Virus record (IMG/VR): IMGVR_UViG_3300045988_135886 | Length of the DNA stretch: 64,000 nt | Strand: one strand, 5' to 3' | Source of the DNA: a virus | In this document: in pieces, positions 6,476-63,272 of the stretch | How positions within the stretch are numbered: position 1 is the first letter of the stretch | How the letters are laid out: every line of letters starts with the position of its first letter | Position numbers and translations under genes: made by a program | The notes under the pieces: model-generated | Told to the model about the DNA's origin: nothing | Databases searched by the model: none | The model's input: only the letters and a program-made list of their open reading frames with translations

Positions 6476-6476
6476 C

Positions 6477-7528: not shown

Positions 7529-7604
7529 CTATTAAATAAAAATTTTAAAAAGAGAAATACATATGACGAAGTAATTAAATGATAAAGTAGAACATTATTA
7601 GCGA

Positions 7605-8538: not shown

Positions 8539-8566
8539 AATTTTCACCTTTTATATAGTTTTTAAG

Positions 8567-40288: not shown

Positions 40289-40831
40289 ATGGCAATTTAT
40301 AAAGGTGAACAATGTCTTGCCGGAGTTGGTAAGAATGCAACTATTAAAATTGGTACTGCTAAAACAGGTACTTCGGCTGCGGTAACTAATTCTGGTACTG
40401 ATACAGATGCTATATTGAATTTTACATTACCTAAAGGTGATCAGGGAGTTGGAATTTCAAGTGTTATCCCTCATTATCTTGCAAGTCCTAAATCGCAGGG
40501 AGTGACCAGATCAACTACTGGATGGGCGACTTCCGCTCAAGTTATGACATCTACAAATAAATATTTGTGGTGTTATCATGAATTTGTTTTGACAAACAAT
40601 AATCATTTGTATACAGATGCAACCGTTATAGGTGTTTATGGAGATAAAGGTGATCCGGGTACAACTGATTACAATGGATTGAAGAATAAACCGGTCGTTA
40701 ATGGAGCTGTAACTGCTTATCAGTCAGATATTATGAAATCTCAGTTGAGAAATGTGACATTCTCTACTGAAGAACCTAAGACAACTGATGGTAAACCTGG
40801 TGATATGTGGGTGGTGTATGGCGATGAGTAA
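40289..40831 (+). CDS. fibre adaptor-like protein
   Basis: AAGGAGG RBS. Short collagen-like GDKGDPG. C-terminus GKPGDMWVVYGDE, which overlaps the start of the next gene. Confidence 0.6.
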   Translation: MAIYKGEQCLAGVGKNATIKIGTAKTGTSAAVTNSGTDTDAILNFTLPKGDQGVGISSVIPHYLASPKSQGVTRSTTGWATSAQVMTSTNKYLWCYHEFVLTNNNHLYTDATVIGVYGDKGDPGTTDYNGLKNKPVVNGAVTAYQSDIMKSQLRNVTFSTEEPKTTDGKPGDMWVVYGDE

Positions 40832-42590
40832 TATTAAAACTGGAGATATATTGAACTTTGATTATACTGGTGCTGTTCAGAGCGTAACATTGAAACCTGG
40901 AAAATATGTGCTTGAGTGTTGGGGTGCTCAAGGTGGAAATGGATGTACGGGAAATTCATATAAAGGCGGTGCCGGAGGATATTCCAAAGGTACTCTCACA
41001 CTAGCCAAAACAGAAACTTTATACATATATGTTGGTGGACAAGGAGTTAGCGCTGCAGCTTCTGGCAATGGAAATATTCGAGAAGGTGGATTCAACGGTG
41101 GTGGATCTGGACGTGATTGGGGTAGTACTGGTAATGGCGGTGGCGGAGGTGGTGGCGCCTCTGATATTCGAATTATAACTGATAACTTCTATGCTCGTGT
41201 TATAGTCGCCGGCGCTGGTGGTGGAGCTTCTGATAATGGAGCAGGCGGTGCTGGCGGCGGCACTTCTGGGATTTCATCATCCTCTTCCGCTGGAACAGCA
41301 ACTGGAGGCAGCGGTTTTGGTCAAGCGGCGGCATCAAGTTACACTTCAGGTGAATGTGGTGGCGGTGGCGGTGGCTGGTATGGAGGTTATGGCGGATCCT
41401 CAGAAAATTATTCTGGCGGTGGTGGATCAGGTTATGTCTACACTTCTTCTTCTGCTTCTAACTACCCTTCTGGATGCCTACTAAATTCTACTTATTATCT
41501 TTCTAATGCTCAAACCATTGCAGGAAATCAAACTTTTAAATCGCCTACTAATACAAATGAAACCGGTCACTCTGGTAACGGCTATTGTCGAATTACTGTT
41601 ATTGAATGCAGTAATACAGCACTATATGTCAGAATAAACAATTCTATGAAAAAAGCTACTGCTTTCTATTTCAAATTAAATAACAACAAAATGTACGGTG
41701 TTGGTTCTGCTAATTATAATGGTTCTGTTATGAATTTTGATTATACTGGTTCGGTTCAAACTGCTACATTGACTCCTGGTACATATACAATAGAATGCTG
41801 GGGTGGCCAAGGAGGAAGTTATAATAGTTACATAGGCGGATATGGTGGTTACTCCAAAGGCACAATTACTCTTACTAAAGCAACTACTGTTTATATATCT
41901 GTTGGTGGAGCTGGATCTTCCTCTTCTACTGCTGCAGGATTCAATGGTGGAGGAACTGGTATTTCTTCTGGTAGAGGTGGTGGAGGAGCTACAGATGTTC
42001 GTATAGGTCAAAATTCTCTATATTCAAGAGTTATCGTAGCCGGAGGTGGCGGCGGAGCTGGTGTAACAAGTGCCAATGCTAATCCTTGTGGTTGTGGTGG
42101 TGGAGAATATGGTGGAGATGGCTATTATAATAACACTACCGGTTCTTATACTACTGGTCAAAATAGATCTGGCGGTAGTGCCTCACAAACTGCAGGTGGT
42201 ATAACTTGGAGTACAGGCACCCAGGCTACTTTTGGTCAAGGCGGAAATGCTTCCGGCTACTCTTGTGGTGGCGGCGGAGGCGGCTGGTATGGAGGCGGCG
42301 GAGCCTATGACAATGATTCTGACTCTGATGGACGTTGGGGTGGAGGAGGATCAGGATATGTTTATACCTCTTCTACAGCTAAAAATTACCCTAACGGATG
42401 CCTACTAAATTCTACTTATTATCTTTCTAATGCTCAAACCATCGCAGGAAACACTTCTTTTACTTCTCCTACAGGATCAGCAGAAACTGGTCACACAGGC
42501 AGTGGATTCTGCAGAATTACAAATTTGAACCCAACACAATATGGATTATACGTAAAAACGAACTCTGGTTGGAAACACATAGATTTATAA
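40818..42590 (+). CDS. glycine-rich domain protein (two tandem Gly-rich modules)
   Basis: Two copies of NFDYTG.VQ..TL.PG.Y..ECWG.QGG...GG.GGYS.GT.TL...(I/V)VAG(A/G)GGG...GGGSGYVYTS...ETGH.G.G.CRIT. Confidence 0.7.
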   Translation: MAMSNIKTGDILNFDYTGAVQSVTLKPGKYVLECWGAQGGNGCTGNSYKGGAGGYSKGTLTLAKTETLYIYVGGQGVSAAASGNGNIREGGFNGGGSGRDWGSTGNGGGGGGGASDIRIITDNFYARVIVAGAGGGASDNGAGGAGGGTSGISSSSSAGTATGGSGFGQAAASSYTSGECGGGGGGWYGGYGGSSENYSGGGGSGYVYTSSSASNYPSGCLLNSTYYLSNAQTIAGNQTFKSPTNTNETGHSGNGYCRITVIECSNTALYVRINNSMKKATAFYFKLNNNKMYGVGSANYNGSVMNFDYTGSVQTATLTPGTYTIECWGGQGGSYNSYIGGYGGYSKGTITLTKATTVYISVGGAGSSSSTAAGFNGGGTGISSGRGGGGATDVRIGQNSLYSRVIVAGGGGGAGVTSANANPCGCGGGEYGGDGYYNNTTGSYTTGQNRSGGSASQTAGGITWSTGTQATFGQGGNASGYSCGGGGGGWYGGGGAYDNDSDSDGRWGGGGSGYVYTSSTAKNYPNGCLLNSTYYLSNAQTIAGNTSFTSPTGSAETGHTGSGFCRITNLNPTQYGLYVKTNSGWKHIDL

Positions 42591-42605
42591 AAGGAGGGCT
42601 TAACT

Positions 42606-42881
42606 ATGCCGATTATATTTCACGGAACAGGTAGTGGCGGCTCTGCTAAAAAACTAAAAACCGCACGAACTATTAATGGTACGAATTTTGATGGTACAGC
42701 TAATATTACTACTGCTAATTGGGGAACAACAAGAACCGTTACTGTAGGAAATACAAGTAAATCTGTAAATGGATCTGGAAACGTAAGTTGGTCGTTAGCT
42801 GAAATAGGTATTCATCTTTCAACAACGGAACCTGCAGCTAGTGACGGAAAGAATGGAGATATTTGGATTACTTATGAATAA
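42606..42881 (+). CDS. fibre adaptor-like protein
   Basis: AAGGAGGG RBS. Fibre repeat KLKTARTINGTNFDGTANIT. C-terminus GKNGDIWITYE parallels the C-terminus of the 40289 gene. Confidence 0.6.
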   Translation: MPIIFHGTGSGGSAKKLKTARTINGTNFDGTANITTANWGTTRTVTVGNTSKSVNGSGNVSWSLAEIGIHLSTTEPAASDGKNGDIWITYE

Positions 42882-42905
42882 AAGACTGAAAGGAAGGTGA
42901 GGCTT

Positions 42906-45347
42906 ATGGCTTGTTCTGGTGGATGTGGAACTTCTTGTTCTACTGACTGCACTCATTCATCATCTGGTGGATGTGGTGGTTCTTGTGGTGGTTCTTGCTC
43001 TACTAACTGTACTGGTGGATGTTCTGGATATTGTGATGGAACTTGTAAGGGAGGTTCAGGAAGTACTTGTTCTGACTGTACTGCCAAATGTGCTAATGAC
43101 TGTACCGGAGCTTGTACAAATGCTTGTGTAACCGGATGCACTGGCTGTGGGAACAACTGTGATGGAGACTGTACAAGCGCCTGTGCTCAAAGGTGCTCTA
43201 ATGATTGCAATGCTGCATGTACTGCTACTTGTGCTTATGATTGCGAACATACTTGCACTGCTTCTTGTGCCAACGACTGCACCAGTTGTGGTGGATCTTG
43301 CTCAAGTAATTGCTCAGGAAATTGTGATTCCGGTTGTTATACTGGTTGTTCCGGTTGTGATTCTACCTGTTCTGGATCCTGCACTGGTACTTGTAATACT
43401 ACTTGCACTACCACTTGTGCCAATGACTGCACTGGCGGGTGCAAAGGAACCTGTACAGGTGGATGTGGTGGTTCTTGTGATAATTCATGCGGCTTTTCTT
43501 GTGAAGCTTCATGTGATAACAATTGTACTGCTGTTTGTTCTGTATCTTCTGTGTATGGTGGAAACTCAGAGAAGAGTGTATTGAATTTTGCTTATACAGG
43601 TAAAGCTCAATCTGTAACCCTTGAGCCTGGAAAATATGTTCTTGAATGCTGGGGAGCACAGGGAGGTTATCGTTCTAATTCTAGTTATGGTGGAAAAGGT
43701 GGCTATTCTACAGGGACTTTAACATTGACTCAAAAAACTACTATATACATATATGTCGGTGGATCTGGAAATTCTGTTACATCAGCATCAAATTCAATCT
43801 ATCCCGGAGGTTTCAATGGTGGTGGATATAGATACAATTATAAAGGTGGTGGTGGCGCTACTGATATTCGTATTGGAAGTGCTTCTTTATATGCCCGTGT
43901 TATCGTTGCAGGTGGCGGTGGTTCTGATGGTAGTCCTAATTATAGTGGTGGGTATGCAGGTGGTGTATCTGGTACTAGGGGAAATTTTGGATGTGGTTCA
44001 TATGGATATGGTGGATCTCAAACTGCTTCATATTCATCTTTAAGTGCTATTAATTCACAAGGCACCACAAATTCTTCTTCTAACTGTGCTGCTGGTTTTG
44101 GTTTCGGTGGTTTTGGATGTTATTACGCTTCAGGTTACGGTGGAGCTGGCGGCGGAGGATGGTACGGTGGACAAGGTACTTATCCTGATGGTTCTGGAGA
44201 TGATGATGGCGGTGGCGGAGGTGGATCTGGTTACGTTTATACTTCCTCTTCTGCTTCTAACTATCCTCAAGGCTGTCTCCTAAATTCATCTTACTATCTT
44301 TCTGATGCTTCTAATTTATCTGGCAATGAATCTTTCAAATCTCCTTCTGGTGCTACAGAAACTGGTCATTCTGATAATGGCTATTGTAGGATTACCTGTT
44401 ATATCAAAAAGAAAACTCTACATTGTAAAATGAACAATGAAATTAAAAAAGCAGCTCCAGTATTTATGAAAATGAACAATAAAATTTATGATGCTGGCGC
44501 TAATGCTGTAATGGATTTTGCTTATACAGGAACAGCTCAAGCTATATCACTTCCAAGAGGAAAATATATTATAGAATGCTGGGGCGCTCAAGGCGGTTCA
44601 TATAGTAGTTATTATGGTGGTGCTGGAGGATATTCTGTCGGAACCATAACTCTAACTAAAAATTCTACGGATTTATATATTTATGTTGGTGGACAACCAG
44701 AAGCTACAACTTCAACAGGTGAAACACCTGGTGGATTTAACGGAGGAGGAAAAGGTTGTTCAAGAACTTATAATTATAGTAGTTATGGACAAGGTGGCGG
44801 CGGTGCAACCGATGTTCGTATAGGAAAAAATGATCTTTATGCTAGAGTTATTGTCGCTGGTGGCGGCGGAGGTTCATCATCAGAAAATTCGCTTACAACA
44901 AAATATGGCGGTGGAACTACTGGTGGTTCTTCTGCTTCTGGATATGGAGCTACACAAACTGCTGCAGGTACAAATGGTTCGTTTGGTCAAGGTGGTTCTG
45001 CAACAACTTCTGGAACTAATTATAATTATGGTTCCGGCGGTGGTGGAGGTGGATGGTATGGTGGTGGTGCATGTTCTGATTATAGTGACAGCACTAACTA
45101 CCAAGGCTATAATGGCGGAGGTTCAGGATATGTTTACACTTCAGCTACTGCTGCTAATTATCCAAGTGGTAATTATGTAAATTCTTCTTACTACCTTACC
45201 GATGCGCAAACTATAGCAGGAAATCAATCATTTAAATCACCTAATGGAACAAATGAAACAGGCCATACCGGAAATGGTTTCTGTCGTATCACACGTAAAT
45301 CAGGAAAAATATTTGTAAAACAAAACGGTTCATGGATCAAAGTATAA
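42906..45347 (+). CDS. CXXX-repeat / glycine-rich chimeric fibre protein
   Basis: ATG at 42906 after an AGGAAGGTGA RBS. The first ~210 aa carry 52 Cys, almost all spaced CxxxC. Two Gly-rich modules follow, as in the 40818 gene. Confidence 0.75.
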   Translation: MACSGGCGTSCSTDCTHSSSGGCGGSCGGSCSTNCTGGCSGYCDGTCKGGSGSTCSDCTAKCANDCTGACTNACVTGCTGCGNNCDGDCTSACAQRCSNDCNAACTATCAYDCEHTCTASCANDCTSCGGSCSSNCSGNCDSGCYTGCSGCDSTCSGSCTGTCNTTCTTTCANDCTGGCKGTCTGGCGGSCDNSCGFSCEASCDNNCTAVCSVSSVYGGNSEKSVLNFAYTGKAQSVTLEPGKYVLECWGAQGGYRSNSSYGGKGGYSTGTLTLTQKTTIYIYVGGSGNSVTSASNSIYPGGFNGGGYRYNYKGGGGATDIRIGSASLYARVIVAGGGGSDGSPNYSGGYAGGVSGTRGNFGCGSYGYGGSQTASYSSLSAINSQGTTNSSSNCAAGFGFGGFGCYYASGYGGAGGGGWYGGQGTYPDGSGDDDGGGGGGSGYVYTSSSASNYPQGCLLNSSYYLSDASNLSGNESFKSPSGATETGHSDNGYCRITCYIKKKTLHCKMNNEIKKAAPVFMKMNNKIYDAGANAVMDFAYTGTAQAISLPRGKYIIECWGAQGGSYSSYYGGAGGYSVGTITLTKNSTDLYIYVGGQPEATTSTGETPGGFNGGGKGCSRTYNYSSYGQGGGGATDVRIGKNDLYARVIVAGGGGGSSSENSLTTKYGGGTTGGSSASGYGATQTAAGTNGSFGQGGSATTSGTNYNYGSGGGGGGWYGGGACSDYSDSTNYQGYNGGGSGYVYTSATAANYPSGNYVNSSYYLTDAQTIAGNQSFKSPNGTNETGHTGNGFCRITRKSGKIFVKQNGSWIKV
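42912..43538 (+). repeat. CXXX-repeat coding region (protein-level period 4)
   Basis: 45 of the 51 Cys-to-Cys intervals are exactly CxxxC. The intervening residues are G/S/T/D/N/A-rich and variable, so this is not a simple DNA tandem repeat. Confidence 0.9.
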
Positions 45348-45385
45348 CACTTTGGTCCATATTTAAATTACAAGGAGGAATTGTT

Positions 45386-45784
45386 ATGAAACTTATTTTG
45401 AAAGACGGACAAGAATTAGTTATTACTCGTGCTAACGATACATATTCATATGAAGGATATAAAGATGGGTTGGGAAATGATATGAACAAAAATATTGTAG
45501 CTACTATTTCTATCTTCAATTCTGATAAATCTTTAAACACTATTAAGGATATGATTACTGATGACAATAGAACAGGTTTTAAAATTATTTATGGGAATAC
45601 CCAGAAAGATTATACTGGAATGAAAATTGAAAGTATTTCAGAAGAAATCTCCAATGAAAGAAGTGTTATTAATATCTCATTAGCTACAGATAAAACCATA
45701 GCTCCTACTGAGACCACTGGAACAACAACAGAAAAAACTAAAGAAGAAACTAAAGAAAAAACGGAAACAGCTTCTGATAAATAA
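45386..45784 (+). CDS. hypothetical protein
   Basis: AAGGAGG RBS before the ATG at 45386. T/E/K-rich tail. Confidence 0.65.
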   Translation: MKLILKDGQELVITRANDTYSYEGYKDGLGNDMNKNIVATISIFNSDKSLNTIKDMITDDNRTGFKIIYGNTQKDYTGMKIESISEEISNERSVINISLATDKTIAPTETTGTTTEKTKEETKEKTETASDK

Positions 45785-45809
45785 TTAAGAATGAAAGGAA
45801 TATAAGGAT

Positions 45810-46148
45810 ATGAGAAAAATAATCGTAAAGATTGATAAAGAAAAAGCTACAGAGCTTGAAAGAGTTAATTTTGAATTAAACTTCGTAAAAGACATTGTAC
45901 AGAGAGTTATTGAATCACATCCAAGCGATTTAGAACTCATCAATGGAGATACTCTTATGTCTTACAATAAACGTGGTGCAGAATTACAGAGAAAGTATGC
46001 TGCTCTTGCAAATGAGATGGAAAAGGAATACATCCCAGAATACCTCGAAGGTCATCAGTATAGTTGGATTATTCCAAATAATTCTGATGAAATGACTATT
46101 ACTATTAAATGTAATTGTGAGATTCCAGAATTAGAGGAAATAGCATGA
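45810..46148 (+). CDS. small protein translationally coupled to the radical SAM gene (candidate accessory/partner protein)
   Basis: ATGA overlap with the 46145 gene. 112 aa, helical and acidic. C-terminus is ...TITIKCNCEIPELEEIA. Confidence 0.6.
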   Translation: MRKIIVKIDKEKATELERVNFELNFVKDIVQRVIESHPSDLELINGDTLMSYNKRGAELQRKYAALANEMEKEYIPEYLEGHQYSWIIPNNSDEMTITIKCNCEIPELEEIA

Positions 46149-48544
46149 AAAGGACAGAACAATATTCGGATCAGATAGCTAGACTTTATCCATCTAAGAA
46201 GGTAAAAACCGATGACGGACAAAGAATATTAACACAGAGTATCACTTTTCAAGTAACTGATGATTGTAACCTTGCATGTAGTTATTGCCTTAGTGGAGAT
46301 ACAAAAATCCGTATGGCAGATTATTCGTTAAAATCAATCAAAGATATTCAGTTGGGAGATAAAGTGTTAGGATTTGAGGAATATCCTCAAAAAGGGAAAC
46401 AGACTAAGGTAATTGTTTCAGACGTAGAGAAATTATATTGTCATGAAGCATCAACTATCGAGTTAACATTTAATGACGGACAAATTCTTAATATTACTCC
46501 TAATCATAAAATTTTAGTTCGAAGAAATTCTTATGATAATAGATATGACTATGTTGAAGCTGGTAAACTAAATATAGGCAGTGAAGTGTATTACCTCCCT
46601 ATTATTGATTCAAAATTACATATAGAAGAGCCGATACATGACATAAATTATAAAATAGGATACCTTATTGCAATGATTAAAGGTGACGGTTCATTAAAAC
46701 ATTATAATCGAAAGTCTGATGGTTGTGATGTATTCAAGTTTAGAATAGCTGTAAAAGATACGGAAATAATCGAACGTTGTAAGAAGTATCTTGATGATTT
46801 AGATATTCCGGTTTATTTGAAACCGTATAATGTATCTAAAAAATACGATATATGGAACAATGCTATTTTTGCAAATACAAGATACGTATATAATAAATTA
46901 AATCAATTAATTAGCGATAATTTCTCTCAAAATACTTCTCTTTCATATTATCAAGGATATCTTGCAGGATTTTACGATGCTGAAGGTCATATTTCAAAAG
47001 AACGTGTTATCAGAATTTGCAATACAGATATTAAGATGATTAATGAGGCTACCTTAGGATTGGATTTGTTAAAGATTCCATACATAATCGAAGTTGATGC
47101 AAAAGGAACTGTGAATAAACCATTAAAATACAATATTCGAATAACTGATAACTTAAATTCTATATCTACATATCGTTTTATCAAATCTGTTCATCCAGCA
47201 ATAAAAAGAAAATCTTTTGATAATTTCCTTAATTATTCTCCATTAAAAAAGACTAAAATTATAGATATAAAAAAAAATCCTATTAGTACTACGGTATATA
47301 ACATAGGAACTTCATCTCGTACTTATATCGCAAACACTATTGCTGTACATAATTGTTACCAAGGACATAAAGGAAAAAATCGAATGTCGTTTGAAACAGC
47401 TAAGAAATTCTTTGATTTAGTTGTATCAGGTGAAAAAGGTTTTAAATCTTATATCAATCCAGAGAAATCTCCTGGATTGGTTGTAGATTTCATTGGAGGA
47501 GAACCTTTTCTTGAGATAGAGCTTATAGATCAAATCTGTACTTATATTATGGATAAACTCATAGAGTTGGATCATCCTTGGGCCATGAAAACTATGTTCT
47601 CTATTTGTTCAAATGGTGTTTTATACAGGGACGAAAAAGTACAAGCATTTCTTCGTAAGTGGGCCAATAGATTATCTTTCTCAGTTACTATTGATGGGAA
47701 TAAAGAATTACATGATTCCTGTCGAGTATTCCCAGATGGCAGTCCAAGTTATGACATAGCTGTCGATGCTGCGTCTGATTGGATGAAACGTGGAAATCAT
47801 ATGGGAAGCAAGATCACAATTGCTCCAGGTAATATCAGCTTTCTATACGATGCTATTAAGCATATGGTCGATCTTGGATATGATGAAATCAATGCCAATT
47901 GTGTATATGAAAAGGGTTGGACACCTGTACATGCAACTGTTCTTTACGATCAAATGAAACGCATATCTGATTATTTCTTGGAACAGAATTTTGATTTTGA
48001 ACGTGATTTCTTCTGTTCCCTTTATAATGAAGATTTCTTTCATCCTAAAGATCCTGATGATTTACAAAGCTGGTGCGGAGGCGTTGGTAATTCAATGATT
48101 GCTTGCGATCCTCAAGGTCGCATATTTCCATGTATCAGATATATGGAATCTTCTCTTAATGGAGAGCAAGAACCGTACTCTATTGGTGATGTAGATAATG
48201 GTATAGGATGCACAGAATGTTATAAATGCAGAATTAATTGTATGGCAAAAATAGATAGAAGGACACAGAGTACAGATGAATGTTTCTATTGTCCTATAGC
48301 TGCAGGATGTTCTAATTGTTCTGGTTATGATTATCAAGTGAATGGTACTCCTGACTCAAAAGCTACTTATATATGTGTTATGCATAAAGCTCGTGCTCTT
48401 GGAAACCTGTATTTCTGGAATAAATATTATAGAAAAAATAATATGAATAAACGAATGAAAAACTATGTGCCAGATGAATGGGCGCTTGAGATTATTTCTG
48501 AATCAGAACTTAATATGTTGAAAGAACTTGAAAGAGAGGATTAA
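46145..48544 (+). CDS. radical SAM/SPASM-domain maturase-like enzyme, interrupted by an intein
   Basis: CNLACSY[C...intein...N]C restores CX3CX2C after splicing. GGEP motif (FIGGEPFLE). C-terminal Cys-rich SPASM-like region (CGGVGNSMIACD...CIRY...CTECYKCRINC...CFYCPIAAGCSNCSG). Confidence 0.75.
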   Translation: MKRTEQYSDQIARLYPSKKVKTDDGQRILTQSITFQVTDDCNLACSYCLSGDTKIRMADYSLKSIKDIQLGDKVLGFEEYPQKGKQTKVIVSDVEKLYCHEASTIELTFNDGQILNITPNHKILVRRNSYDNRYDYVEAGKLNIGSEVYYLPIIDSKLHIEEPIHDINYKIGYLIAMIKGDGSLKHYNRKSDGCDVFKFRIAVKDTEIIERCKKYLDDLDIPVYLKPYNVSKKYDIWNNAIFANTRYVYNKLNQLISDNFSQNTSLSYYQGYLAGFYDAEGHISKERVIRICNTDIKMINEATLGLDLLKIPYIIEVDAKGTVNKPLKYNIRITDNLNSISTYRFIKSVHPAIKRKSFDNFLNYSPLKKTKIIDIKKNPISTTVYNIGTSSRTYIANTIAVHNCYQGHKGKNRMSFETAKKFFDLVVSGEKGFKSYINPEKSPGLVVDFIGGEPFLEIELIDQICTYIMDKLIELDHPWAMKTMFSICSNGVLYRDEKVQAFLRKWANRLSFSVTIDGNKELHDSCRVFPDGSPSYDIAVDAASDWMKRGNHMGSKITIAPGNISFLYDAIKHMVDLGYDEINANCVYEKGWTPVHATVLYDQMKRISDYFLEQNFDFERDFFCSLYNEDFFHPKDPDDLQSWCGGVGNSMIACDPQGRIFPCIRYMESSLNGEQEPYSIGDVDNGIGCTECYKCRINCMAKIDRRTQSTDECFYCPIAAGCSNCSGYDYQVNGTPDSKATYICVMHKARALGNLYFWNKYYRKNNMNKRMKNYVPDEWALEIISESELNMLKELERED
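46286..47353 (+). mobile_element. intein (356 aa) with a LAGLIDADG homing endonuclease domain
   Basis: N-terminal splice block CLSGDTKIRM. Two LAGLIDADG motifs (GYLIAMIKGDGSL and GYLAGFYDAEGHI). C-terminal block TIAVHN followed by the +1 Cys. Confidence 0.85.
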
Positions 48545-48560
48545 AAGCCTCTCTTTTTTA
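48533..48560 (+). terminator. terminator hairpin
   Basis: agagagg-attaaaag-cctctct followed by tttttatt. It overlaps the stop codon. Confidence 0.55.
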
Positions 48561-48584
48561 TTGACTAAAAGGAGGCTTGATATT

Positions 48585-50255
48585 ATGGCAGAAATTAAAG
48601 GAATTGATGTTTCCAGATGGAATGGAAACATCGACTGGAAAACTGTTGCTAGTTATGGAATGGGCTTCGCTATCCTAAGAATTACAGAAAAAGGAAATAT
48701 TGTTGATAGCACATTCGAACCTAATTATAAAGGCTGTATTGAGAATAAAATTCCTGTTGGAGTCTATAAATACAGCTATGCTACTACTATTGCTCAAATT
48801 AAAAATGAAGCAAATGTAGTTATTAAAACATTGAATAAAAGAAAACTGGATTATCCAGTGTTTCTTGATATAGAGGATAAATGTCAGGAGAATTTATCTG
48901 ACAATTTAATGATGAAAATGATCGAAGCGTTTAGAGCTATTATTGTCAAAGCTGGATATAAATTTGGTATTTACTGTGGTTATTCTTGGTATCAGTATCA
49001 ACTACCAGAAGGTGCTAAAAAGTATGATTGTTGGGTTGCCCGATATCCTAATAATGATACCGGTGAATTACAGGAAAGATTAAGAGTTCCTGCTTCTACT
49101 GGTGTTATTGGATGGCAATATTCTAGTAAGGCAACCATTCCTGGAATTCCAACAAAAACTGATCGAAGTGTATTCTATAAAGACTATTCTAAATCTTCTA
49201 CTACTTCTACAGACTCTCCCAAACCAACAACTACACAAGGAAGTGATACTATGAATAAAGATAAAGCTATTGATGCTCTTATTGCTTGCGCTGAAAATGA
49301 GGTTGGATATTTAGAGAAGAAATCTAATTCTCAGCTTGATGATAAAACTGCAAATGCAGGTTACAATAACTACACTAAATACTGGAGAGACGTATATCCT
49401 CAGTATCAGGCACAGGCTTGGTGTGCAGCGTTTGTGAGTTGGTGCATGATGAAAACATTCGGTCTTGATGTAGCTAAAAAACTCCTTAAACATTGGCCTT
49501 ATGTATACTGTCCTACTCTTGGAAATCTCTTTACAAAGTATGCAAATCCACAGCGAGGAGACATTGTGATCTTCTATCGTAACGGTACTTTTGCACATAC
49601 AGGAATTGTCACAAAAGTTGAAGGTGATAAGTTTTATACTATTGAAGGGAATACTTCAGCTGGCTCTACTGTTGTTCCAAATGGTGGAGGAGTTTTTGCT
49701 AAATCTTATTACAATTCTAATCTTCCAGGCACTAAATTCTGTCGTCCAGACTATTCTATTGTCACATCTATTTTAACATCTACTGCACCTGTACAGCCAT
49801 CTTATACTGCATGGGTAGGTTCTTGTACAGCTAATGGAACAGATGTATTCTCAGGCGCTACAGGAGCTTCTAAGTTAAGTACATATCCTAAACTTAATGC
49901 AGGTAATCTTGTGGATATCATCGGTGAATCTGGTACAAGATATCAGGTTCGTATCGCTGCAAAATATATAGGGTATGTAGAAAAATCTAACATTAAAAAT
50001 CCTAATACTCCTGCTGCAACAACTACAAAAAAATATCCATTTGTAGGAAAAGTAACTGCAAGTAAATTGAATGTTCGCAAAAAACCCGGTACTGAACATC
50101 CGGTACTTCCAGAGTATCCGATGTTAAATAAAGACAATCTTATTAATGTCCTCGGAGTTACAAAAGATACTAAAGGTGACAGATGGTACAAAGTATCAAT
50201 CACTAAAAAAGAATATGTTGGCTATGTATCAGCCAAATATATTACTAAGGCATAA
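48585..50255 (+). CDS. modular endolysin: GH25 muramidase + CHAP + two SH3 domains
   Basis: AAGGAGG RBS before the ATG at 48585. GIDVSRWNGNIDW...VFLDIED matches GH25. CAAFVSWC...HTGIV...EGNTS matches CHAP. Two SH3_3-like repeats lie at the C-terminus. Confidence 0.8.
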   Translation: MAEIKGIDVSRWNGNIDWKTVASYGMGFAILRITEKGNIVDSTFEPNYKGCIENKIPVGVYKYSYATTIAQIKNEANVVIKTLNKRKLDYPVFLDIEDKCQENLSDNLMMKMIEAFRAIIVKAGYKFGIYCGYSWYQYQLPEGAKKYDCWVARYPNNDTGELQERLRVPASTGVIGWQYSSKATIPGIPTKTDRSVFYKDYSKSSTTSTDSPKPTTTQGSDTMNKDKAIDALIACAENEVGYLEKKSNSQLDDKTANAGYNNYTKYWRDVYPQYQAQAWCAAFVSWCMMKTFGLDVAKKLLKHWPYVYCPTLGNLFTKYANPQRGDIVIFYRNGTFAHTGIVTKVEGDKFYTIEGNTSAGSTVVPNGGGVFAKSYYNSNLPGTKFCRPDYSIVTSILTSTAPVQPSYTAWVGSCTANGTDVFSGATGASKLSTYPKLNAGNLVDIIGESGTRYQVRIAAKYIGYVEKSNIKNPNTPAATTTKKYPFVGKVTASKLNVRKKPGTEHPVLPEYPMLNKDNLINVLGVTKDTKGDRWYKVSITKKEYVGYVSAKYITKA

Positions 50256-50266
50256 GGAGGTATATC

Positions 50267-50815
50267 ATGGGTATTGAACAGATACAGAAAATCCATGAGT
50301 TTGGTGAGATCAATGTGATCATATCTTTACTTCTTTGTGCAATGCTTGTTATAGCTTTAAAAGCTGGATGGGAGAAACTTCTTGATGTTCTTGGTCTCGA
50401 AACAAAAGCATCTCTACAGAAGAAAGCTTTAGAGAAGAAGTTGTCTGATATGGAACAGAAAATTGCTGATTTTGAGCAGTCTCAACATAATTATCATGAC
50501 CAGTCCATTAATATCAGAGATGATCTGAGAACAAATCAAAATACTCTAAGCACACAGCTTACTGATCTTACAACTTTGATGCAGAACTTTATAACTAATC
50601 AAGATGAGTGTACTGTAGCATCATTTAGAAGTTCTCTCTGGAGAATGCATAGAGACTTTATGGCACAAGGGTACATCACACCGGATGGATTAAAGACATT
50701 CCTAGAGATGGGAAAGCTTTATGAAAAGGCTGGTGGAAATGATATTTATCATGAGAAATTACTTCCAGATATTGAATCTCTGGAAGTCAGATATACAAAA
50801 GACAATGTACTATAA
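50267..50815 (+). CDS. N-terminally membrane-anchored coiled-coil protein (lysis-associated?)
   Basis: AAGGAGG RBS. One TM helix (INVIISLLLCAMLVIALKA). Lies immediately after the endolysin. Confidence 0.4.
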   Translation: MGIEQIQKIHEFGEINVIISLLLCAMLVIALKAGWEKLLDVLGLETKASLQKKALEKKLSDMEQKIADFEQSQHNYHDQSINIRDDLRTNQNTLSTQLTDLTTLMQNFITNQDECTVASFRSSLWRMHRDFMAQGYITPDGLKTFLEMGKLYEKAGGNDIYHEKLLPDIESLEVRYTKDNVL

Positions 50816-50820
50816 TTTAT

Positions 50821-50849
50821 GGGTAGTCAAGCATTATACTTGGCTACCC
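50821..50849. terminator. bidirectional terminator
   Basis: gggtagtcaag-cattata-cttggctaccc followed by attttttta. Lies between convergent genes. Confidence 0.7.
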
Positions 50850-50855
50850 ATTTTT

Positions 50856-51122
50856 TTACTTTGATTCTTTATCAAGCATATTCCGAACGTCTTCTACAGA
50901 AAGTCCTTTTTCTCGAAGTAATTTGGCAAGATCTTTCATAGACTGTTCTTCTTTTACGGCTGCTTCTTTCTTCTCTGCTGCAACAAGATCTTTAGAAAGA
51001 TTCTTTTTCTGCACTCTCAAGCCTTTGATATCTTCTGTAAGCTTAGTAATTTGTTCTTCTATAGATGTAATTTGTGCCTTAATTTCTTCTGATGTAAGCT
51101 CTACTTTTCTTACTCTTGCCAT
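50856..51122 (-). CDS. small coiled-coil protein
   Basis: 88-aa K/E-rich ORF next to the attP region. Confidence 0.55.
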   Translation of the reverse strand: MARVRKVELTSEEIKAQITSIEEQITKLTEDIKGLRVQKKNLSKDLVAAEKKEAAVKEEQSMKDLAKLLREKGLSVEDVRNMLDKESK

Positions 51123-51463: not shown

Positions 51464-51600
51464 ATAATTATTGCTTCATCCTTATCCTTATGCTATAATT
51501 TACTTAACACATAATTCATATTATCATAATTTTGGAAAAAAGTAAAGTTTTTTATTTTGTAAGTAAAATTAGTGTAATTTTGTACAACGGAGGGATGTAT

Positions 51601-52794
51601 ATGGCAAGAAGGGAAAAAGGTTCAGGATCATGGGATACTGTAACAAAGAATGACATTACATACTATAGGTACCGTAAGAAATATAATGGTATGACAAGCC
51701 GGAAAGAATTTGTAGGAAGGACAAAAGCTGATGTAAAACGCAAGATACAAGAATTTGAAGCTAAGAGTATGAGGGTTAACCAAAAAGATTATCGTAAGAT
51801 GACTCTTGGGGAATGTATAGATAATATCCTGCAGACGTTGGAGCCGACTTTCAAGACAAATAACTATGCTACTCTTCAGTCTACAAATCGCTGCTATATT
51901 AAAACTAATCCGATTGCTGATGTTCAGATGGCTGCTATAGACAAGATTGTCATTCAAACATACTATACAAATATGTCGAAGAAATATTCTGAGAGCACTG
52001 TTAAAAAGACACGCACTCTTTTCAATATTGTTTTCGACTATCTTGTATCCTGTAACATTATCACAGAGAATCCTGCAAAAGGGATTAAGATGCCGCATAA
52101 GTCAAAATATGCAGTACAGAAGAAAGAACACTCTTTCTTATCTTTAGAAGAAGCTGAGAAGTTTTATAAGACGGCTCTTATGAAAGCAAATTCTGCTTTG
52201 CCAGGCGTAAAGACAGGTGATTACATCTATGGACGTAATGCTAGGTTCTGTCTGTTAGTTCTTTATACTGGTATGCGTATAGGAGAAGCTTATGCTCTCA
52301 CATGGAAAGATATAGATTTTAAGAATAATACCATTAACATAGATAAGACAATGGAGCGTATCAAAGTAGATAGCAAATATCAGTGGCTCATAGATACACC
52401 AAAACGTCCTAAGTCAATCAGAGTTATTCCTCTGGCAAATCGTGCAAAGGAACAGCTGCTCTGGCTTAAAACTGTGTCTCCTGGACTGGAAGCATCCGGA
52501 GATGACCATATATTCGTAACTAAGAACAATATTCCACCATCACAGTCAACTCTTACCAGGACGCTTAAAGCGATCCTCAAGAGAGCCGGCATCGAATCTA
52601 ATGGTTTCGGCCTACATGATCTTAGGCATTCGTTCGGATCTATGCTGCTGCAGAAAGGATGGGAACAGAACCAGCCTGTAGATATTAAGGTAATATCAGA
52701 GATACTTGGACATGAAGATGTTTCCACAACTTATAACATATATATGCATATCATGAATAAACATAAATCAGAAGTCATAAATTTACTTGATTAA
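51601..52794 (+). CDS. int: tyrosine recombinase / phage integrase
   Basis: GGAGGG RBS before the ATG at 51601. Motifs GMRIGEAYALTWKDIDF, HDLRHSFGS and LGHEDVSTTYNIYMH (the R..HxxR..Y catalytic pattern). Confidence 0.85.
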   Translation: MARREKGSGSWDTVTKNDITYYRYRKKYNGMTSRKEFVGRTKADVKRKIQEFEAKSMRVNQKDYRKMTLGECIDNILQTLEPTFKTNNYATLQSTNRCYIKTNPIADVQMAAIDKIVIQTYYTNMSKKYSESTVKKTRTLFNIVFDYLVSCNIITENPAKGIKMPHKSKYAVQKKEHSFLSLEEAEKFYKTALMKANSALPGVKTGDYIYGRNARFCLLVLYTGMRIGEAYALTWKDIDFKNNTINIDKTMERIKVDSKYQWLIDTPKRPKSIRVIPLANRAKEQLLWLKTVSPGLEASGDDHIFVTKNNIPPSQSTLTRTLKAILKRAGIESNGFGLHDLRHSFGSMLLQKGWEQNQPVDIKVISEILGHEDVSTTYNIYMHIMNKHKSEVINLLD

Positions 52795-56844: not shown

Positions 56845-57114
56845 TTAATATTCCTCATAGTCAGTCTCATCACTGATATTTAATTTATGTTTCTCAGCTT
56901 CATGTACTTTATTCAATGCGACTTTTTTACTATCAAATACTACTTCTCCTACAGTATTAAATCCTAAGAGATACTCATGTTTATCTCTTTTATCCATACC
57001 TACAAAGTAGGTGTCTGTGACTGTACGAACAGTCAAATCACAGACATCATAGATACCTACTGTAGGGAAAATTCTTGTATAATAGAGCTTGTCACCTTTT
57101 TCTATTACTTTCAT
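56845..57114 (-). CDS. hypothetical protein
   Basis: GGAG RBS. Start overlaps the stop of the RNR gene. Confidence 0.65.
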   Translation of the reverse strand: MKVIEKGDKLYYTRIFPTVGIYDVCDLTVRTVTDTYFVGMDKRDKHEYLLGFNTVGEVVFDSKKVALNKVHEAEKHKLNISDETDYEEY

Positions 57115-59363
57115 TAATCACATTTACTCCATCCACAATTCTTGCAAGTGTTACAGCCACCTTCAAAGACTAATTCTCCACCACACTGAGGACATTTCGC
57201 CTTAGAAACTGGTACAATTTTAGGTGTAATAACTTCTAATTCTTTTTCTTCAATATCTGAAAAACCTACTTCATCCATCATCTCTTCATACATTTCAAGA
57301 AGAGCATTTCCAATAGCTACAGGGCAACTGCTGCCTTTAGATGTATCGTGCTTAGTAGCTGTTCTAACCGCATATGATGGACAGGTACCAGAAGATTTTA
57401 ACTGATCTACTATGGAATAAACATCAATTCCGCCTCTAGCTGCCAAAGAAATCATTCTCGAAAGTCCAATCATAAAATTATTACACCCACCGGAAGACCC
57501 TTTACTGAAATAAGTTTCAAGCAACTGGCCATTGTCTGGATCAAAGAAAGCTTCACAATGGAGTGTTCCACAACCTGTCCTAAGAGTTCTCTTTTTGCCA
57601 ATGCAATTATCATCTGCTTTGATGATCATTCCTCTTTCTAATCTGTGAGGTTTTTCTACAATATCTTCTACATTCTCTTTAATAGTAAGAATACCTGCAC
57701 GTTTACATCCATCTCTAAAGATAGTTACACCTTTTAATCCTGCATCCCATGCAGTCATGTATAATCCTTCCACCTGTTCAACTGTAAAATCATTTGGAAC
57801 ATTAACAGTAGAACTGATAGATGCATCAATGTGTGACTGCCAAATACTTTGCATATAGATTCTGTTCTTATAATCCAGTGTCTGAGCTGTTACAAAGTAA
57901 TCTGGTAATTCAGAATCATCTTTTAATCCATGTTTATCCATATATTCTTTTACAATTGAAGTGTAGACTTTATAATATTCATCATGACCTTTAAGAGACT
58001 CTGTTTTTCTTGTATAGTAGTTTGCAAAAATAGGTTCAATACCACCAGACACACCAAGCATAGTTGAAAGAGATCCAGTTGGTGCAATTGTAAGTAACTG
58101 AGAGTTTCTAAGTCCAAATGATTCTACTAATTCTTTTGTTTCTCCTAATGCATTTTTACTATAAAACGCTGATTGTTCTACCGCTTCTGGTTTATATTTA
58201 GGATATACACCATATTCTTTTGCTAACACAGCAGATGTTTTAATTGCCATATCTGCCATAGTATGTCCAATCATGTCACATAAATCAATGGCTTCTGGAC
58301 TACCATATTTAATTCCCAGTTTAATAAGCAAATCGGCAAGACCAAAGATTCCAAGTCCAATCTGTCTCCAATCATATACAGATTCTCTTTGTTCTTTTAA
58401 TGGATGGAGTGGAAGTCCTTCATCTAATACTTCATTTAATGCAATAACAGACGATTTGACACAATGCTTAAAACTCTCAAAATCAAATCCTGTATCACAT
58501 GCAAATTCAGCTAGGTTAATGCTACCAAGAAGGCATGAACCTCCCGCTGGCAAAGGTTCTTCTGCGCATGGATTTGTTCCTGCATATTCAAACTCATCAT
58601 CACAACTAAGTAAATTCCAGTTATTGATTCTGTCCCAGAAAAGCATTCCAGGTTCAGCATAATCCCAGTTCATTTCACACATTTTATGAAACATTTCATA
58701 TGCATCAATTTCTTTAGTGATGGTTTCTCCTGTTTCTAACCTAGTAAATGATAAAGTAAATGGAGTTTTATTCTTTACCGCAGCCATAAACTTGTCTGTA
58801 ATTCTAATAGAAATATTAGCTTTTGTGACTCTATCAAGGTCTGATTTAATACCAATAAACTCTTCTAAGTCTGGATGCTCACATGAAAGACTAAGCATTA
58901 AAGCTCCTCTACGTCCCGCTTGCCCGATTAATCCAGTAACCATAGAATATAAGTCCATAAATGATACAGAACCAGTTGTTTCTTTAGCGGCATTATTGAC
59001 CTTTGCACCTCTTGGAGATAATTTACTAATATCAACTCCACATCCACCACCATAGCTATATGTACGAGCAAGTTTTTTAGCGCAGTCAAAGATACTTTCA
59101 ATATTGTCTTCCGGTGGTTCAATTACATAGCAATTACTGAGACTAATTTTACGTCCTTTATTCTCAAGACCTCTATTAGCAAGAATGCGACCTCCAAATA
59201 AGAACTTTTTCTCTTTAATTAAATTAGCAATTTCTGAATTTCCACCAGATACACGATTAATCCACTCATCAAAAGTTTCATTTTCATATCTGTATTTTCT
59301 TTCCCAAATATCTTGTCCTAATTGATTCTCTGTTCCTAACCATTCCTGTACTGTCATACACAT
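57114..59363 (-). CDS. nrdJ: class II (adenosylcobalamin-dependent) ribonucleotide reductase
   Basis: GTNPCAEEPLPAGGSCLLGSINL active-site pattern. C-terminal zinc ribbon CPQCGG...CNTCKNCGWSKC. The start may be the third codon (ATG at 59357), which has better RBS spacing. Confidence 0.8.
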   Translation of the reverse strand: MCMTVQEWLGTENQLGQDIWERKYRYENETFDEWINRVSGGNSEIANLIKEKKFLFGGRILANRGLENKGRKISLSNCYVIEPPEDNIESIFDCAKKLARTYSYGGGCGVDISKLSPRGAKVNNAAKETTGSVSFMDLYSMVTGLIGQAGRRGALMLSLSCEHPDLEEFIGIKSDLDRVTKANISIRITDKFMAAVKNKTPFTLSFTRLETGETITKEIDAYEMFHKMCEMNWDYAEPGMLFWDRINNWNLLSCDDEFEYAGTNPCAEEPLPAGGSCLLGSINLAEFACDTGFDFESFKHCVKSSVIALNEVLDEGLPLHPLKEQRESVYDWRQIGLGIFGLADLLIKLGIKYGSPEAIDLCDMIGHTMADMAIKTSAVLAKEYGVYPKYKPEAVEQSAFYSKNALGETKELVESFGLRNSQLLTIAPTGSLSTMLGVSGGIEPIFANYYTRKTESLKGHDEYYKVYTSIVKEYMDKHGLKDDSELPDYFVTAQTLDYKNRIYMQSIWQSHIDASISSTVNVPNDFTVEQVEGLYMTAWDAGLKGVTIFRDGCKRAGILTIKENVEDIVEKPHRLERGMIIKADDNCIGKKRTLRTGCGTLHCEAFFDPDNGQLLETYFSKGSSGGCNNFMIGLSRMISLAARGGIDVYSIVDQLKSSGTCPSYAVRTATKHDTSKGSSCPVAIGNALLEMYEEMMDEVGFSDIEEKELEVITPKIVPVSKAKCPQCGGELVFEGGCNTCKNCGWSKCD

Positions 59364-61112: not shown

Positions 61113-63272
61113 CTAAAAATCAAATTTCTTGTTACATAATTCATCTAAATCATCCATAAGATAAGTTTGTCTATGGATAATCTGTTCTTTAGTAATTGCG
61201 TATTGCAGAGCCTTAGTCTGAGCACATAGTATAAATTTTTTACTGGCTCTAGTAATCATGGTGTATAAGAGTTCTTTATTAAGCATAATAAACATTGAAA
61301 AGTCTATTCCTCCAATAACTGTATCAAACTGACTTCCTTGAGCTGAATGACAAGTTATTGCATATCCAAGCTCTATATAAGGAGCATGTGATTTAGGTAC
61401 TTCTACATAGCCAATTCCTTGAAAATCTATCAGGATATAGTCATTTTTTATATCTTTTATGATGCCTAAATTCCCGTTGAAAATATCTACAACTGAACCA
61501 TCAGAATTAATTATCTGGTACTTATTCTGTTTGTTTATAACTTTATCTCCTACTTTTAATACCCATTGAACTACTCCACTTTTCATAATTTTGTATTGCT
61601 TTTTTGATTTGGGGTTGTATATCTGTTGAGCTATATGATTTAAAGAAGCTACTGAAGACACTCCTTGTTTACAAGGAACAATGATTTGCACATCCAGAAT
61701 AGATTTAGCATGTTTGATTTCTTCTTTAAAATACTGCACTATATTATGATATGTATTAGATTTATCAGTATAGCAATTAAGAATCATGTCCTGAAGTTCA
61801 CCTCTTGTTTCTTCTCCAGTCCACCCATCAGAAGTTAATTGTTTTCCTTGTCTCACTCGAATACTTTCAGTAATAATCGCTGATTTCTGAGCTTGTCTAT
61901 GAATTTTATCAAGGAAAATTGAAGATATATATTTAGATTCAAGCATATCAGCAGCTACTGCACAGGAACCTATAGATTCTAGCTGCCCCACATCTCCAAT
62001 AAAGATTACTTTTGTTCCAGTAGCACACGCTTTCAGTAATTGCTTAAAAAGATAACCATCAATCATAGACATTTCGTCCACTACAATAATGTCATAATCT
62101 AAAGGATCATACTCATAGTCAAATGGTGTTCTTGGATCTCCATATTTGAGTTTGAGTAACTTATGAATTGTTTGACTTTCTTTACCAGAAGCTTCACTAA
62201 TTCTCGCCGCAGCTCTTCCGGCTAAAGCTACTGTTACACTTTTATAATCTTGCAGGATAGTAAGAATACCATCAATAATACTCGTCTTACCTGTTCCGCC
62301 GTAACCGGAGATACAGCATAACTGATTATCGAGAACCATTTTAATACCCTCAAGCTGTTGCTCTGTATAATCCCATCCTTGAGCTTTTTCTTTCTTTTTA
62401 ATTATCTCTAGCCAGTTACTATACTTAAATTTATTAGGGGCATTTTTTAATCTTACTAAATGTTCAGCTATCGAATATTCTAAGTCATAATACCATTTCA
62501 ATCCTATCTTAGTTTTTTCTTTATTCCATACAATCATTTGGGAATCTTGTAAATCATGTATCGCTTCAGCGATATTCAAATCAGGTACTTCTTCTCCTAT
62601 TTTATCTATTAACTCTTGCATGATTTCTTCTGAATAACTAAATGATTTTCCATTCTCTCCTTGATTCCTTAGAAACATTTTAATACAAGTTTCAATCCGA
62701 TCTATACCATAAGGATCAGCTCCATTCTGCAGTGCTATATCATCGGCTGTTTTCCAACCTATCCCTCTTATGATTGTCAAATCATATGGATGATTTTTTA
62801 CTACATCAACGGCTTTATCTACATCTTCATGATAGTATTTAATAATCTTTTCTATCAATTTATCAGTAATAGAATATCTGGCTAAATCAATATAAGCTTT
62901 GTGTTTGTCATAAGTATCATTAAATTTCTCAATCCACTTAGTAGCTACGTTAGGGCCACATCCTTTAATTTTTGTAAGTTCTTTTACGTTCCCTTCTTTT
63001 AAAGCTAAGTAAGGATTATCTAAAGTCTCATACATTCTTTGTACATGTTTGGGGAATAGTTTGCAGAGAATATATTTTTGACCTCTAATATCAGTTTCAG
63101 CTAAATCATTATTCATAGAGCTTTCAAGAATACTAATTTGCTCTCCCCAGGTGGGGCTATAATCCATTTCACCTTTTATGTCGTAAACTTTTCCTATAAT
63201 AGGCGTATGAATATTTCCTTTAATACAATATCTCATGCCTTTTGTAAGATTTCCTACAGTTATTTCTCTCAC
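61113..63272 (-). CDS. RecD-like SF1 DNA helicase
   Basis: Walker A SGYGGTGKTS. Walker B IIVVDEMSMID. AITCHSAQGSQFD motif. HhH-like N-terminal region. The start codon is uncertain (GTG with a weak RBS). Confidence 0.8.
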   Translation of the reverse strand: MREITVGNLTKGMRYCIKGNIHTPIIGKVYDIKGEMDYSPTWGEQISILESSMNNDLAETDIRGQKYILCKLFPKHVQRMYETLDNPYLALKEGNVKELTKIKGCGPNVATKWIEKFNDTYDKHKAYIDLARYSITDKLIEKIIKYYHEDVDKAVDVVKNHPYDLTIIRGIGWKTADDIALQNGADPYGIDRIETCIKMFLRNQGENGKSFSYSEEIMQELIDKIGEEVPDLNIAEAIHDLQDSQMIVWNKEKTKIGLKWYYDLEYSIAEHLVRLKNAPNKFKYSNWLEIIKKKEKAQGWDYTEQQLEGIKMVLDNQLCCISGYGGTGKTSIIDGILTILQDYKSVTVALAGRAAARISEASGKESQTIHKLLKLKYGDPRTPFDYEYDPLDYDIIVVDEMSMIDGYLFKQLLKACATGTKVIFIGDVGQLESIGSCAVAADMLESKYISSIFLDKIHRQAQKSAIITESIRVRQGKQLTSDGWTGEETRGELQDMILNCYTDKSNTYHNIVQYFKEEIKHAKSILDVQIIVPCKQGVSSVASLNHIAQQIYNPKSKKQYKIMKSGVVQWVLKVGDKVINKQNKYQIINSDGSVVDIFNGNLGIIKDIKNDYILIDFQGIGYVEVPKSHAPYIELGYAITCHSAQGSQFDTVIGGIDFSMFIMLNKELLYTMITRASKKFILCAQTKALQYAITKEQIIHRQTYLMDDLDELCNKKFDF

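Follow-up and report, generated by a model that had tools for sequence, protein, structure and literature searches.

The stretch of DNA analysed here (hereafter the window) comprises 64,000 nucleotides from the IMG/VR virus record IMGVR_UViG_3300045988_135886, and it contains an intein inserted in the iron-sulfur (Fe-S) motif of a radical S-adenosylmethionine (SAM) enzyme. The open reading frame (ORF) concerned, of 799 amino acids, is a 443-residue radical SAM maturase of the CXXX-repeat type plus an intein, rather than a novel fusion. Judged from the sequence comparisons set out below, the insert is very probably a selfish, homing intein of class 1, competent for splicing and parked at an indispensable conserved motif, and not a dedicated regulator. 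The maturase family to which the gene belongs, found in phages of gut Clostridia, is an intein hot spot.

The maturase precursor and its insert

The initial annotation described a LAGLIDADG-type intein of 356 amino acids between the second and the third cysteine of the CX3CX2C motif, and both the translation and the ORF reading agree exactly with this description. The precursor reads ...TFQVTDDCNLACSY/CLSGDTKIRM...NTIAVHN/CYQGHKG... (slashes mark intein junctions here and below), and the insert (46286-47353, forward strand) is a stop-free stretch of 356 codons, CLSGDTKIRM...TIAVHN. The motif is formed by C41, C45 and C48; the intein lies between Y47 and C48, C45 occupies position -3 relative to it, and the third cluster cysteine is placed as the +1 nucleophile. 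Joining the exteins in silico gives a predicted product of 443 amino acids with the junction peptide ...CNLACSYCYQGHK, and restores C41-NLA-C45-SY-C48, that is, the CNLACSYC sequence whose regeneration by splicing had been anticipated. The masses expected for the intein (~41 kDa) and for the ligated extein (~51 kDa) coincide with the computed values of 41.0 and 51.0 kDa. The N-extein has the same length as that of P0013, an intein-free phage allele, with ~99% identical sequence, and the C-extein, which holds the remainder of the radical SAM barrel and a putative SPASM region rich in Cys, shows 98.2% nucleotide identity with L001, one of the contigs carrying that allele. The intein is AT-richer than the exteins (GC content 0.285 vs 0.350).

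The spliced product matches the NCBIfam model TIGR04115, which describes radical SAM peptide maturases of the CXXX-repeat target family, in one stretch (model positions 1-359) with 523.7 bits against a cut-off of 350; the unspliced precursor reaches 504.6 bits over model positions 14-359. The runner-up, the model of the PapB ranthipeptide maturase, gives 170 bits, and the nearest NCBIfam families bear radical SAM/SPASM names. The C-terminal part has cysteines at positions 288, 298, 307, 333-343, 357, 360, 366, 369 and 388; the Pfam SPASM match has an E-value above 0.01, and C288 and C369 are predicted auxiliary-cluster ligands by the published SPASM pattern.

From general intein biology, splicing most likely has to precede any action of the maturase on its CXXX-repeat neighbour, described below. 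The unspliced precursor still shows a C-X3-C-X2-C arrangement, in which the intein Cys1 stands in the place of C48, and given this retained motif the precursor may conceivably bind a metal or a cluster. Among cellular genes, those closest to the maturase lack an intein and come from Blautia, Lachnospiraceae, Anaerosporobacter and other Clostridia, and therefore the phage host is probably a strictly anaerobic gut Firmicute.

Conserved residues and fold of the intein

Comparison of the insert alone with hidden Markov models of inteins, as proposed in the initial annotation, gives scores above the curated cut-offs for Pfam LAGLIDADG_3 (38.9 bits, cut-off 22.5, E 1e-9), Pfam Hint (37.0 bits, cut-off 29.7, E 3e-9) and the NCBIfam intein_Nterm model TIGR01445 (26.7 bits, cut-off 24.5), with Pfam Intein_splicing slightly below its cut-off (31.6 bits, cut-off 35.8). 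The Hint match (PF01079) spans intein residues 1-105, and that of TIGR01445 residues 1-78. By these profile scores the match to the intein family is far above chance.

Conservation was read in 30 full-length inteins located at the same site, between residues 47 and 48 of the maturase (38-99% identity). Cys1 (block A), H74 of the TxxH motif (block B), H355 and N356, the +1 Cys that follows them and the endonuclease acid D134 are kept in all 30, and T71 of block B and the second acid, E233, in 29. Residues V337, Y338, N339, T342, T346 and Y347 are invariant or near-invariant. Position 345 of block F is variable (His in 19, Arg in 5, Gly in 5 and Lys in 1), the window intein having Arg. The insert presents the features of class-1 inteins (Cys1, TxxH, His-Asn/Cys, a Hint fold and an in-frame site with intein-free alleles) together with those of LAGLIDADG endonucleases (two motif helices ending in Asp or Glu, and a core fold like that of I-DmoI); both LAGLIDADG motifs lie where they had been annotated, at residues 125-137 and 224-236.

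The structure predicted by AlphaFold2 with 16 same-site inteins as input (predicted local distance difference test, pLDDT, 93; predicted TM-score, pTM, 0.88) has helices at residues 120-133 and 219-233, and beta-strands up to ~residue 103. The top fold matches in the PDB are the TliVMA intein, PI-PfuI and PI-SceI (E 3e-18 to 1e-12), and Foldseek aligns the central domain with I-DmoI chains at target-normalised TM-scores of 0.72-0.80 and a root-mean-square deviation of ~3 Å. When the PDB was searched by sequence, the intein gave no match at E 0.01, the relatives being found by fold search only. PI-SceI (from VMA1), PI-PfuI (from ribonucleotide reductase, RNR) and the TliVMA intein share with the window intein the layout of a Hint domain interrupted by a double-motif LAGLIDADG endonuclease. 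However, they reside in other host proteins and show 8-15% identity in the structural alignments, and the window intein (356 amino acids) is smaller than PI-SceI or PI-PfuI (~400-450 amino acids in the matched PDB chains).

With all the residues needed for class-1 splicing intact, the intein looks functional from its sequence. A decayed intein, unable to splice and leaving the maturase gene as effectively a pseudogene, is very unlikely. The presence of R345 instead of the majority His and of Asn at position 4 of block F could be read in that sense; however, C1, T71, H74, H355, N356 and the +1 Cys are all preserved, the exteins are free of frameshifts and stops and keep ~99% protein identity to intein-free alleles, and the intein is under purifying selection, as described in the following section. 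Besides, the precursor is ~99% identical to the cluster P0001, which has 151 member sequences. Arg and Gly each occur at position 345 in 5/30 related inteins, so that the position is unconstrained; R345 was considered as a sign of decay and rejected because of this variation.

Insertion into intein-free phage alleles

A search with the precursor returned 1114 relatives. Among them, P0013 and P0015 are intein-free, have 443 amino acids and are 98-99% identical to the ligated exteins of the window; the intein-free allele reads DDCNLACLYCYQGHKG, with the motif CNLACLYC followed by YQG. P0013 is found on four contigs (L001-L004) with the gene order of the window: CXXX-repeat/glycine-rich protein, 132-aa ORF, 112-aa ORF, maturase, and a lysin with GH25, CHAP and SH3 domains. 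Positions 42003-46287 of the window align with 1859-6143 of L001 at 97.6% nucleotide identity, and positions 47352-50870 with 6140-9658 at 98.2%, leaving a clean indel of exactly 1068 bp (356 codons) that is equally exact against each of the four contigs. Alignment with intein-free homologues, here the 443-residue alleles, thus fixes the insertion point, as the initial annotation had expected. It had also considered that the segment might be an ordinary domain present in all family members, and 33 of 106 complete clusters (439-458 amino acids) are without insert. Together with the exact indel at the DNA level, and with domain and fold matches to inteins and homing endonucleases, this makes a family-wide ordinary domain or a gene-calling artefact so improbable that both can practically be set aside.

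The extein gene (1332 nt) differs from that of L001 by 22 substitutions, five of which lie close to the junction (nt 141), between nt 122 and nt 155; these near-junction changes include TGC>TGT, CTA>AGT (Leu>Ser at -2) and CAC>CAT. The cluster is suggestive of co-conversion during homing or of changes in the endonuclease site. Selection was estimated from a protein-guided codon alignment with the 69%-identical allele of contig L006. The ratio of nonsynonymous to synonymous substitution rates (dN/dS) is ~0.15 for the intein and ~0.13 for its endonuclease domain, and the proportion of synonymous differences (pS) reaches 0.81 in the exteins but only 0.655 in the intein, all these values being approximate, with dS near saturation. 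By this estimate the intein is under purifying selection, and the direction of the pS contrast fits an intein that moved later than the divergence of the host genes.

A single phage lineage (~98% nucleotide identity) occurs in at least three states: empty (P0013/P0015), with site 47/48 filled (P0001) and with site 44/45 filled (P0008, on contig L008). In contigs L008 and L009, which carry P0008, a different intein of 1044 bp is found 9 nt upstream (corresponding to window positions 46277-46285), before the second cluster cysteine, and replaces the window's intein. Since the same lineage carries either of them, alternative inteins compete for neighbouring sites within one population. From these sequence data, the window intein is probably still mobile. 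Megablast of window positions 45000-49000 against GenBank phages gave no match; the phage is without close cultured relative.

An intein hot spot in the phage maturase family

The insertion sites of the family were mapped by placing the 120 homologues returned by the precursor search on the intein-free P0013, a sample biased towards carriers because the query held an intein. Five sites were found: 44/45, where the +1 residue is C45, the second ligand (inserts of 141-350 amino acids, 24 occurrences); 45/46, where the +1 Cys occupies a motif position without ligand role (mini-inteins of 128 amino acids, 9 occurrences); 47/48, the site of the window intein, with C48 at +1 (137-381 amino acids, 49 occurrences); 287/288, with C288, the first Cys of the putative SPASM region, at +1 (129-349 amino acids, 35 occurrences); and 368/369, with C369, the last Cys of a CX2CX5CX2C string, at +1 (135-345 amino acids, 20 occurrences). 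All five directly precede a cysteine, four of these cysteines being predicted Fe-S ligands, and sites 44/45, 45/46 and 47/48 fall within four residues.

Among the 106 complete clusters, 37 have one intein, 27 two, eight three and one, P0011 (1299 amino acids), four. Sites 44/45 and 47/48 are both filled in P0003, P0007, P0009, P0011 and P0100, where tandem inteins are separated by three extein residues (...DDCNLA/intein/C(N/T)Y/intein/CYQ...). When the exteins alone were used as query, ~20 of 120 clusters had inserts, as judged from the listed lengths; P0001, P0002 and P0008 are absent from that list, despite C-exteins that share 81-99% identity with the query, which makes carrier frequencies from this search unreliable. 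The fraction of carriers can therefore only be bracketed, between ~17% and ~69% of the sampled clusters.

Both full-size and mini-inteins (128-160 amino acids) are found in the family, and the presence of the two forms at one site is typical of the homing cycle. DnaB from Mycobacterium smegmatis has two inteins and fungal Prp8 has seven known sites (PMC6195587, PMC6805012). The maturase family resembles such multi-intein proteins in having several independent sites at the catalytic motifs of one protein, and full-size and mini-inteins at one site. Unlike DnaB and Prp8, it consists of a phage Fe-S enzyme in which every site stands before a Cys and inteins lie as close as three residues apart.

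Proposed splicing and homing, and the possibility of conditional splicing

Following the conserved residues, splicing would start with an N-S acyl shift at Cys1, after which the N-extein would pass to the thiol of the +1 Cys, that is, the cluster ligand C48. Cyclisation of Asn356, helped by His355, would then free the intein, and an S-N shift would remake the peptide bond. The products expected from the 92-kDa precursor would be a 51-kDa maturase that has recovered an intact CNLACSYC and, released from it, the 41-kDa intein/endonuclease. Homing, as suggested by the population data, would take place when related phages or prophages share a cell: the endonuclease would cut the intein-less alleles, and repair of the cut allele would copy the intein in.

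Some observations weigh against a selfish intein competent for splicing and homing. Position 4 of block F is Asn (N339) in all 30 same-site inteins, many class-1 inteins having Asp, and R345 is found where most relatives have His; either residue could slow splicing. The substitutions close to the junction could instead come from selection on the codons flanking the motif, and the near-saturation of dS leaves dN/dS and the pS contrast as approximations.

A domesticated intein acting as a conditional switch is plausible but rather unlikely. Splicing would here be gated by redox state, metal or Fe-S supply, through a disulfide between Cys45 (-3) and Cys1 or between Cys1 and the +1 Cys, or through a metal bound by C41, C45, C1 and the +1 Cys, and active maturase would appear only in a reducing, iron-replete, anaerobic host. 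The arrangement C45-S-Y-C1 at the N-terminal junction is indeed a CXXC with Cys at -3, the precursor retains C-X3-C-X2-C through the intein Cys1, and the closest cellular relatives of the maturase belong to strictly anaerobic gut Clostridia (Blautia, Lachnospiraceae). There is also a precedent in the intein of MoaA from Pyrococcus abyssi, itself a radical SAM enzyme. This MoaA has been described as an oxygen-labile oxidoreductase, and a native disulfide between Cys-3 and Cys1 blocks splicing of its intein under oxidising conditions (Callahan et al. 2011, Nat Struct Mol Biol 18:630, as reported in PMC3922620 and PMC10663303). Both inteins have Cys at -3 and Cys1 in a CXXC-like pair, and from this geometry we infer that the MoaA intein would occupy the same CX3CX2/C junction. 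It is archaeal and chromosomal, whereas the window intein comes from a phage; it is not among the 150 closest representatives of the latter, and no MoaA-type domain was found among the hosts.

However, the host motif forces a Cys at -3 on any intein located here, so that its presence is no evidence of adaptation. Near-identical phages manage without the intein, and the pattern of presence and absence, degenerate mini-inteins and several alternative sites resembles the selfish homing cycle. An adaptive role of such gating is less probable still than gating itself. It is also distinctly improbable that the inteins of the family constitute a multi-input post-translational switch, in which redox-, Fe-S- or metal-gated splicing would impose up to four gates per enzyme, with no more than three residues between two of them. 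A selfish homing intein at an indispensable motif is the preferred reading.

Inteins at the CX3CX2/C motif of other radical SAM proteins

A profile-free search with the intein alone against 1.84 billion representatives gave 911 matches, and the junctions were examined for 97 of the best 150, nearly all of them full-length intein matches. In 68 of these 97, C-X3-C-X2 precedes the intein, the match starts with Cys and another Cys follows it. The host families at CX3CX2/C are Rv2578c-family proteins, SPASM peptide maturases, and B12-binding, DUF5131 and SPL-like radical SAM proteins. In GTDB contigs, taking one genome per species, 52 of 56 full-length relatives occupy the same motif, in carriers from Actinomycetota, Thermoanaerobaculia, Proteobacteria, Gemmatimonadota, Myxococcota, Firmicutes and archaea. 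On the basis of these sequence matches, the window intein belongs to a large and widespread group that homes to CX3CX2/C of many unrelated radical SAM families. A possible second viral case found by tblastn (H3, Virus Rctr197k, 'radical SAM protein-like') was dropped; in the translated protein its apparent N-terminal intein junction is preceded by ...RYCLPGEAP..., without CX3CX2C.

A curated NCBIfam 'exception' model, NF038136, describes the intein-containing Rv2578c family, which has the same insertion point. The proteins of this type read INPYRGCxHxCxY/C...SHN/C[FY]ARP, and their inteins align with the window intein as homologues along its entire length (best aligned segments 22-31% identical, E-values as low as 1e-43), sharing with it Cys1, the LAGLIDADG endonuclease, HN and the +1 Cys; the model aligns window intein residues 1-356. 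The window precursor is not a member, because it scores 69.1 bits against a cut-off of 700 and aligns through the intein part alone; its host protein comes from another radical SAM family. The genes of the NF038136 type are cellular (Actinomycetota, Thermoanaerobaculia, Proteobacteria and archaea), whereas that of the window is from a phage, and the inteins share only ~25-30% identity.

The claim that the host protein is unusual for an intein stands in part. It agrees with the intein literature, where the survey by Novikova (2015) does not use the word 'radical', but not with the databases, as the 68 of 97 junctions, the 52 of 56 GTDB relatives and NF038136 indicate. In the literature searched, inteins in SPASM maturases, in maturases of peptides ribosomally synthesised, then modified post-translationally (RiPPs), or in phage radical SAM genes were not found, and radical SAM hosts were not mentioned apart from P. 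abyssi MoaA; a paper on Campylobacter phages mentions both an intein and radical SAM, but in different genes. Radical SAM CX3CX2/C inteins are thus already known as a kind, and it is for this host family and for the phage setting that no published description was found.

Phage context and neighbouring genes

By its gene content, the window is from a large temperate tailed phage (Table 1). It holds tail genes for tape-measure, Dit-like, very large tail, Mtd_N/fibre-repeat and glycine-rich-domain proteins, as well as a lysin, and the phage is considered temperate because a tyrosine integrase is present. After the integrase come a guanylate kinase, a dUTPase, an RNR large-subunit-type protein and a RecD2-like helicase. 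The last two belong to classic intein host families, and the domain scan found no Hint or intein domain in either; the intein of the maturase is the only one seen in the window. Related contigs measure 160-185 kb, a considerable length for a siphovirus-like phage with a temperate life style. Of the three very large ORFs in the tail region, that of 2870 amino acids has only a weak tape-measure-like match, and that of 2117 has a C-terminal segment of the PblB-type receptor-binding or hyaluronidase-like kind.

Table 1. Location of the maturase precursor, its parts and other genes of the window
Feature	Position	Strand	Size or residues	Basis or remarks
Maturase precursor ORF	46145..48544	+	799 aa, 92.0 kDa (predicted)	
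N-extein	46145..46285	+	residues 1-47	ends ...DDC41-NLA-C45-SY; first two Cys of CX3CX2C
Intein, class-1 type (Cys1...His355-Asn356, +1 Cys)	46286..47353	+	356 aa, 41.0 kDa	translation, Pfam/NCBIfam matches, 1068-bp presence/absence, AlphaFold2 model
Hint domain, N-terminal lobe	46286..46621	+	intein residues ~1-112	block A CLSGDTKI; block B ITPNH (T71, H74)
LAGLIDADG homing-endonuclease domain	46622..47239	+	intein residues ~113-318	PF14528, predicted helices, I-DmoI structural match
LAGLIDADG motif 1, GYLIAMIKGDGSL	46658-46696	+	intein residues 125-137	acid D134, GYLIAMIKGD134G
LAGLIDADG motif 2, GYLAGFYDAEGHI	46955-46993	+	intein residues 224-236	acid E233, GYLAGFYDAE233G
Hint domain, C-terminal lobe	47240..47353	+	intein residues 319-356	block F VYNIGTSSRTYIAN; block G TIAVHN
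C-extein	47354..48544	+	precursor residues 404-799 plus stop codon	starts at the +1 Cys (47354-47356) = C48
Probable maturase substrate	42897..45347	+	816 aa	upstream-but-two from the maturase; adjacency and TIGR04115 definition
112-aa ORF	45810..46148	+	112 aa	overlaps maturase start (ATGA)
Very large tail-region ORF	8567-17179	+	2870 aa	ORF list
Very large tail-region ORF	18183-24536	+	2117 aa	ORF list
Very large tail-region ORF	27242-34465	+	2407 aa	ORF list
Tyrosine integrase	51532-52794	+		between the lysis module and the leftward nucleotide-metabolism/replication module
RNR large-subunit-type protein (RNR barrel and TSCPD domains)	57114-59363	-		domain matches
RecD2-like helicase	61113-63272	-		domain matches

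The 816-residue CXXX-repeat protein is the probable substrate of the maturase, considering gene adjacency and the definition of TIGR04115. Located in the tail-fibre region, it has 52 Cys and 45 C-X3-C steps within its first 235 residues, followed by two glycine-rich domains of the ALK/LTK type (PF12810, 325 bits). The model TIGR04117, 'Cys-Xaa-Xaa-Xaa repeat radical SAM target', matches it weakly (E 0.007), and PF27846 (tSAM_targ_Cxxx_rpt) gives a faint match on its 813-residue orthologue in L001. These features suggest that the target of a RiPP-type cross-linking is a large structural or receptor-binding protein of the phage, and not a small peptide. A paralogue of 600 amino acids (40788-42590, forward strand) also has glycine-rich domains, with PF12810 starting at residue 32; judged from this start and from its length, a long N-terminal extension rich in Cys would not fit.

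The maturase starts at 46145 with an ATG that shares nucleotides with the stop codon of the 112-aa ORF, which takes the same position in every intein-free and intein-containing locus examined. The domain scans gave no family match for this ORF, and its context makes it a possible accessory component of the modification system. Downstream of the maturase, the lysin ORF is listed from a TTG at 48528, still within the 3' end of the maturase gene; this is probably a false start, an ATG being found at 48585 behind a ribosome-binding site, AAAGGAGG (window 48528-48590). The orthologous loci have the lysin called 41 nt past the maturase stop. A GC-poor hairpin with a T-run (AAAAGCCTCTCTTTTTT) lies between both genes in the window.

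Implications

The whole group of inteins specialises on the universal CX3CX2/C motif, having spread across unrelated radical SAM families, from mycobacterial-type Rv2578c proteins to RiPP-like maturases of phages. Their compact size, the Cys at +1 in a short and defined context and the mini forms of 128-160 amino acids make them candidate tools for protein engineering. They also offer a natural system for asking whether splicing can be linked, through the cysteines that act as Fe-S ligands, to cluster assembly or redox state. With regard to the phage itself, it appears to cross-link a large structural protein post-translationally; if the intein did act as a conditional switch, the cross-linking of this Cys-rich, tail-fibre-like protein, and hence the maturation of the virion, would be tied to the anaerobic physiology of the host.

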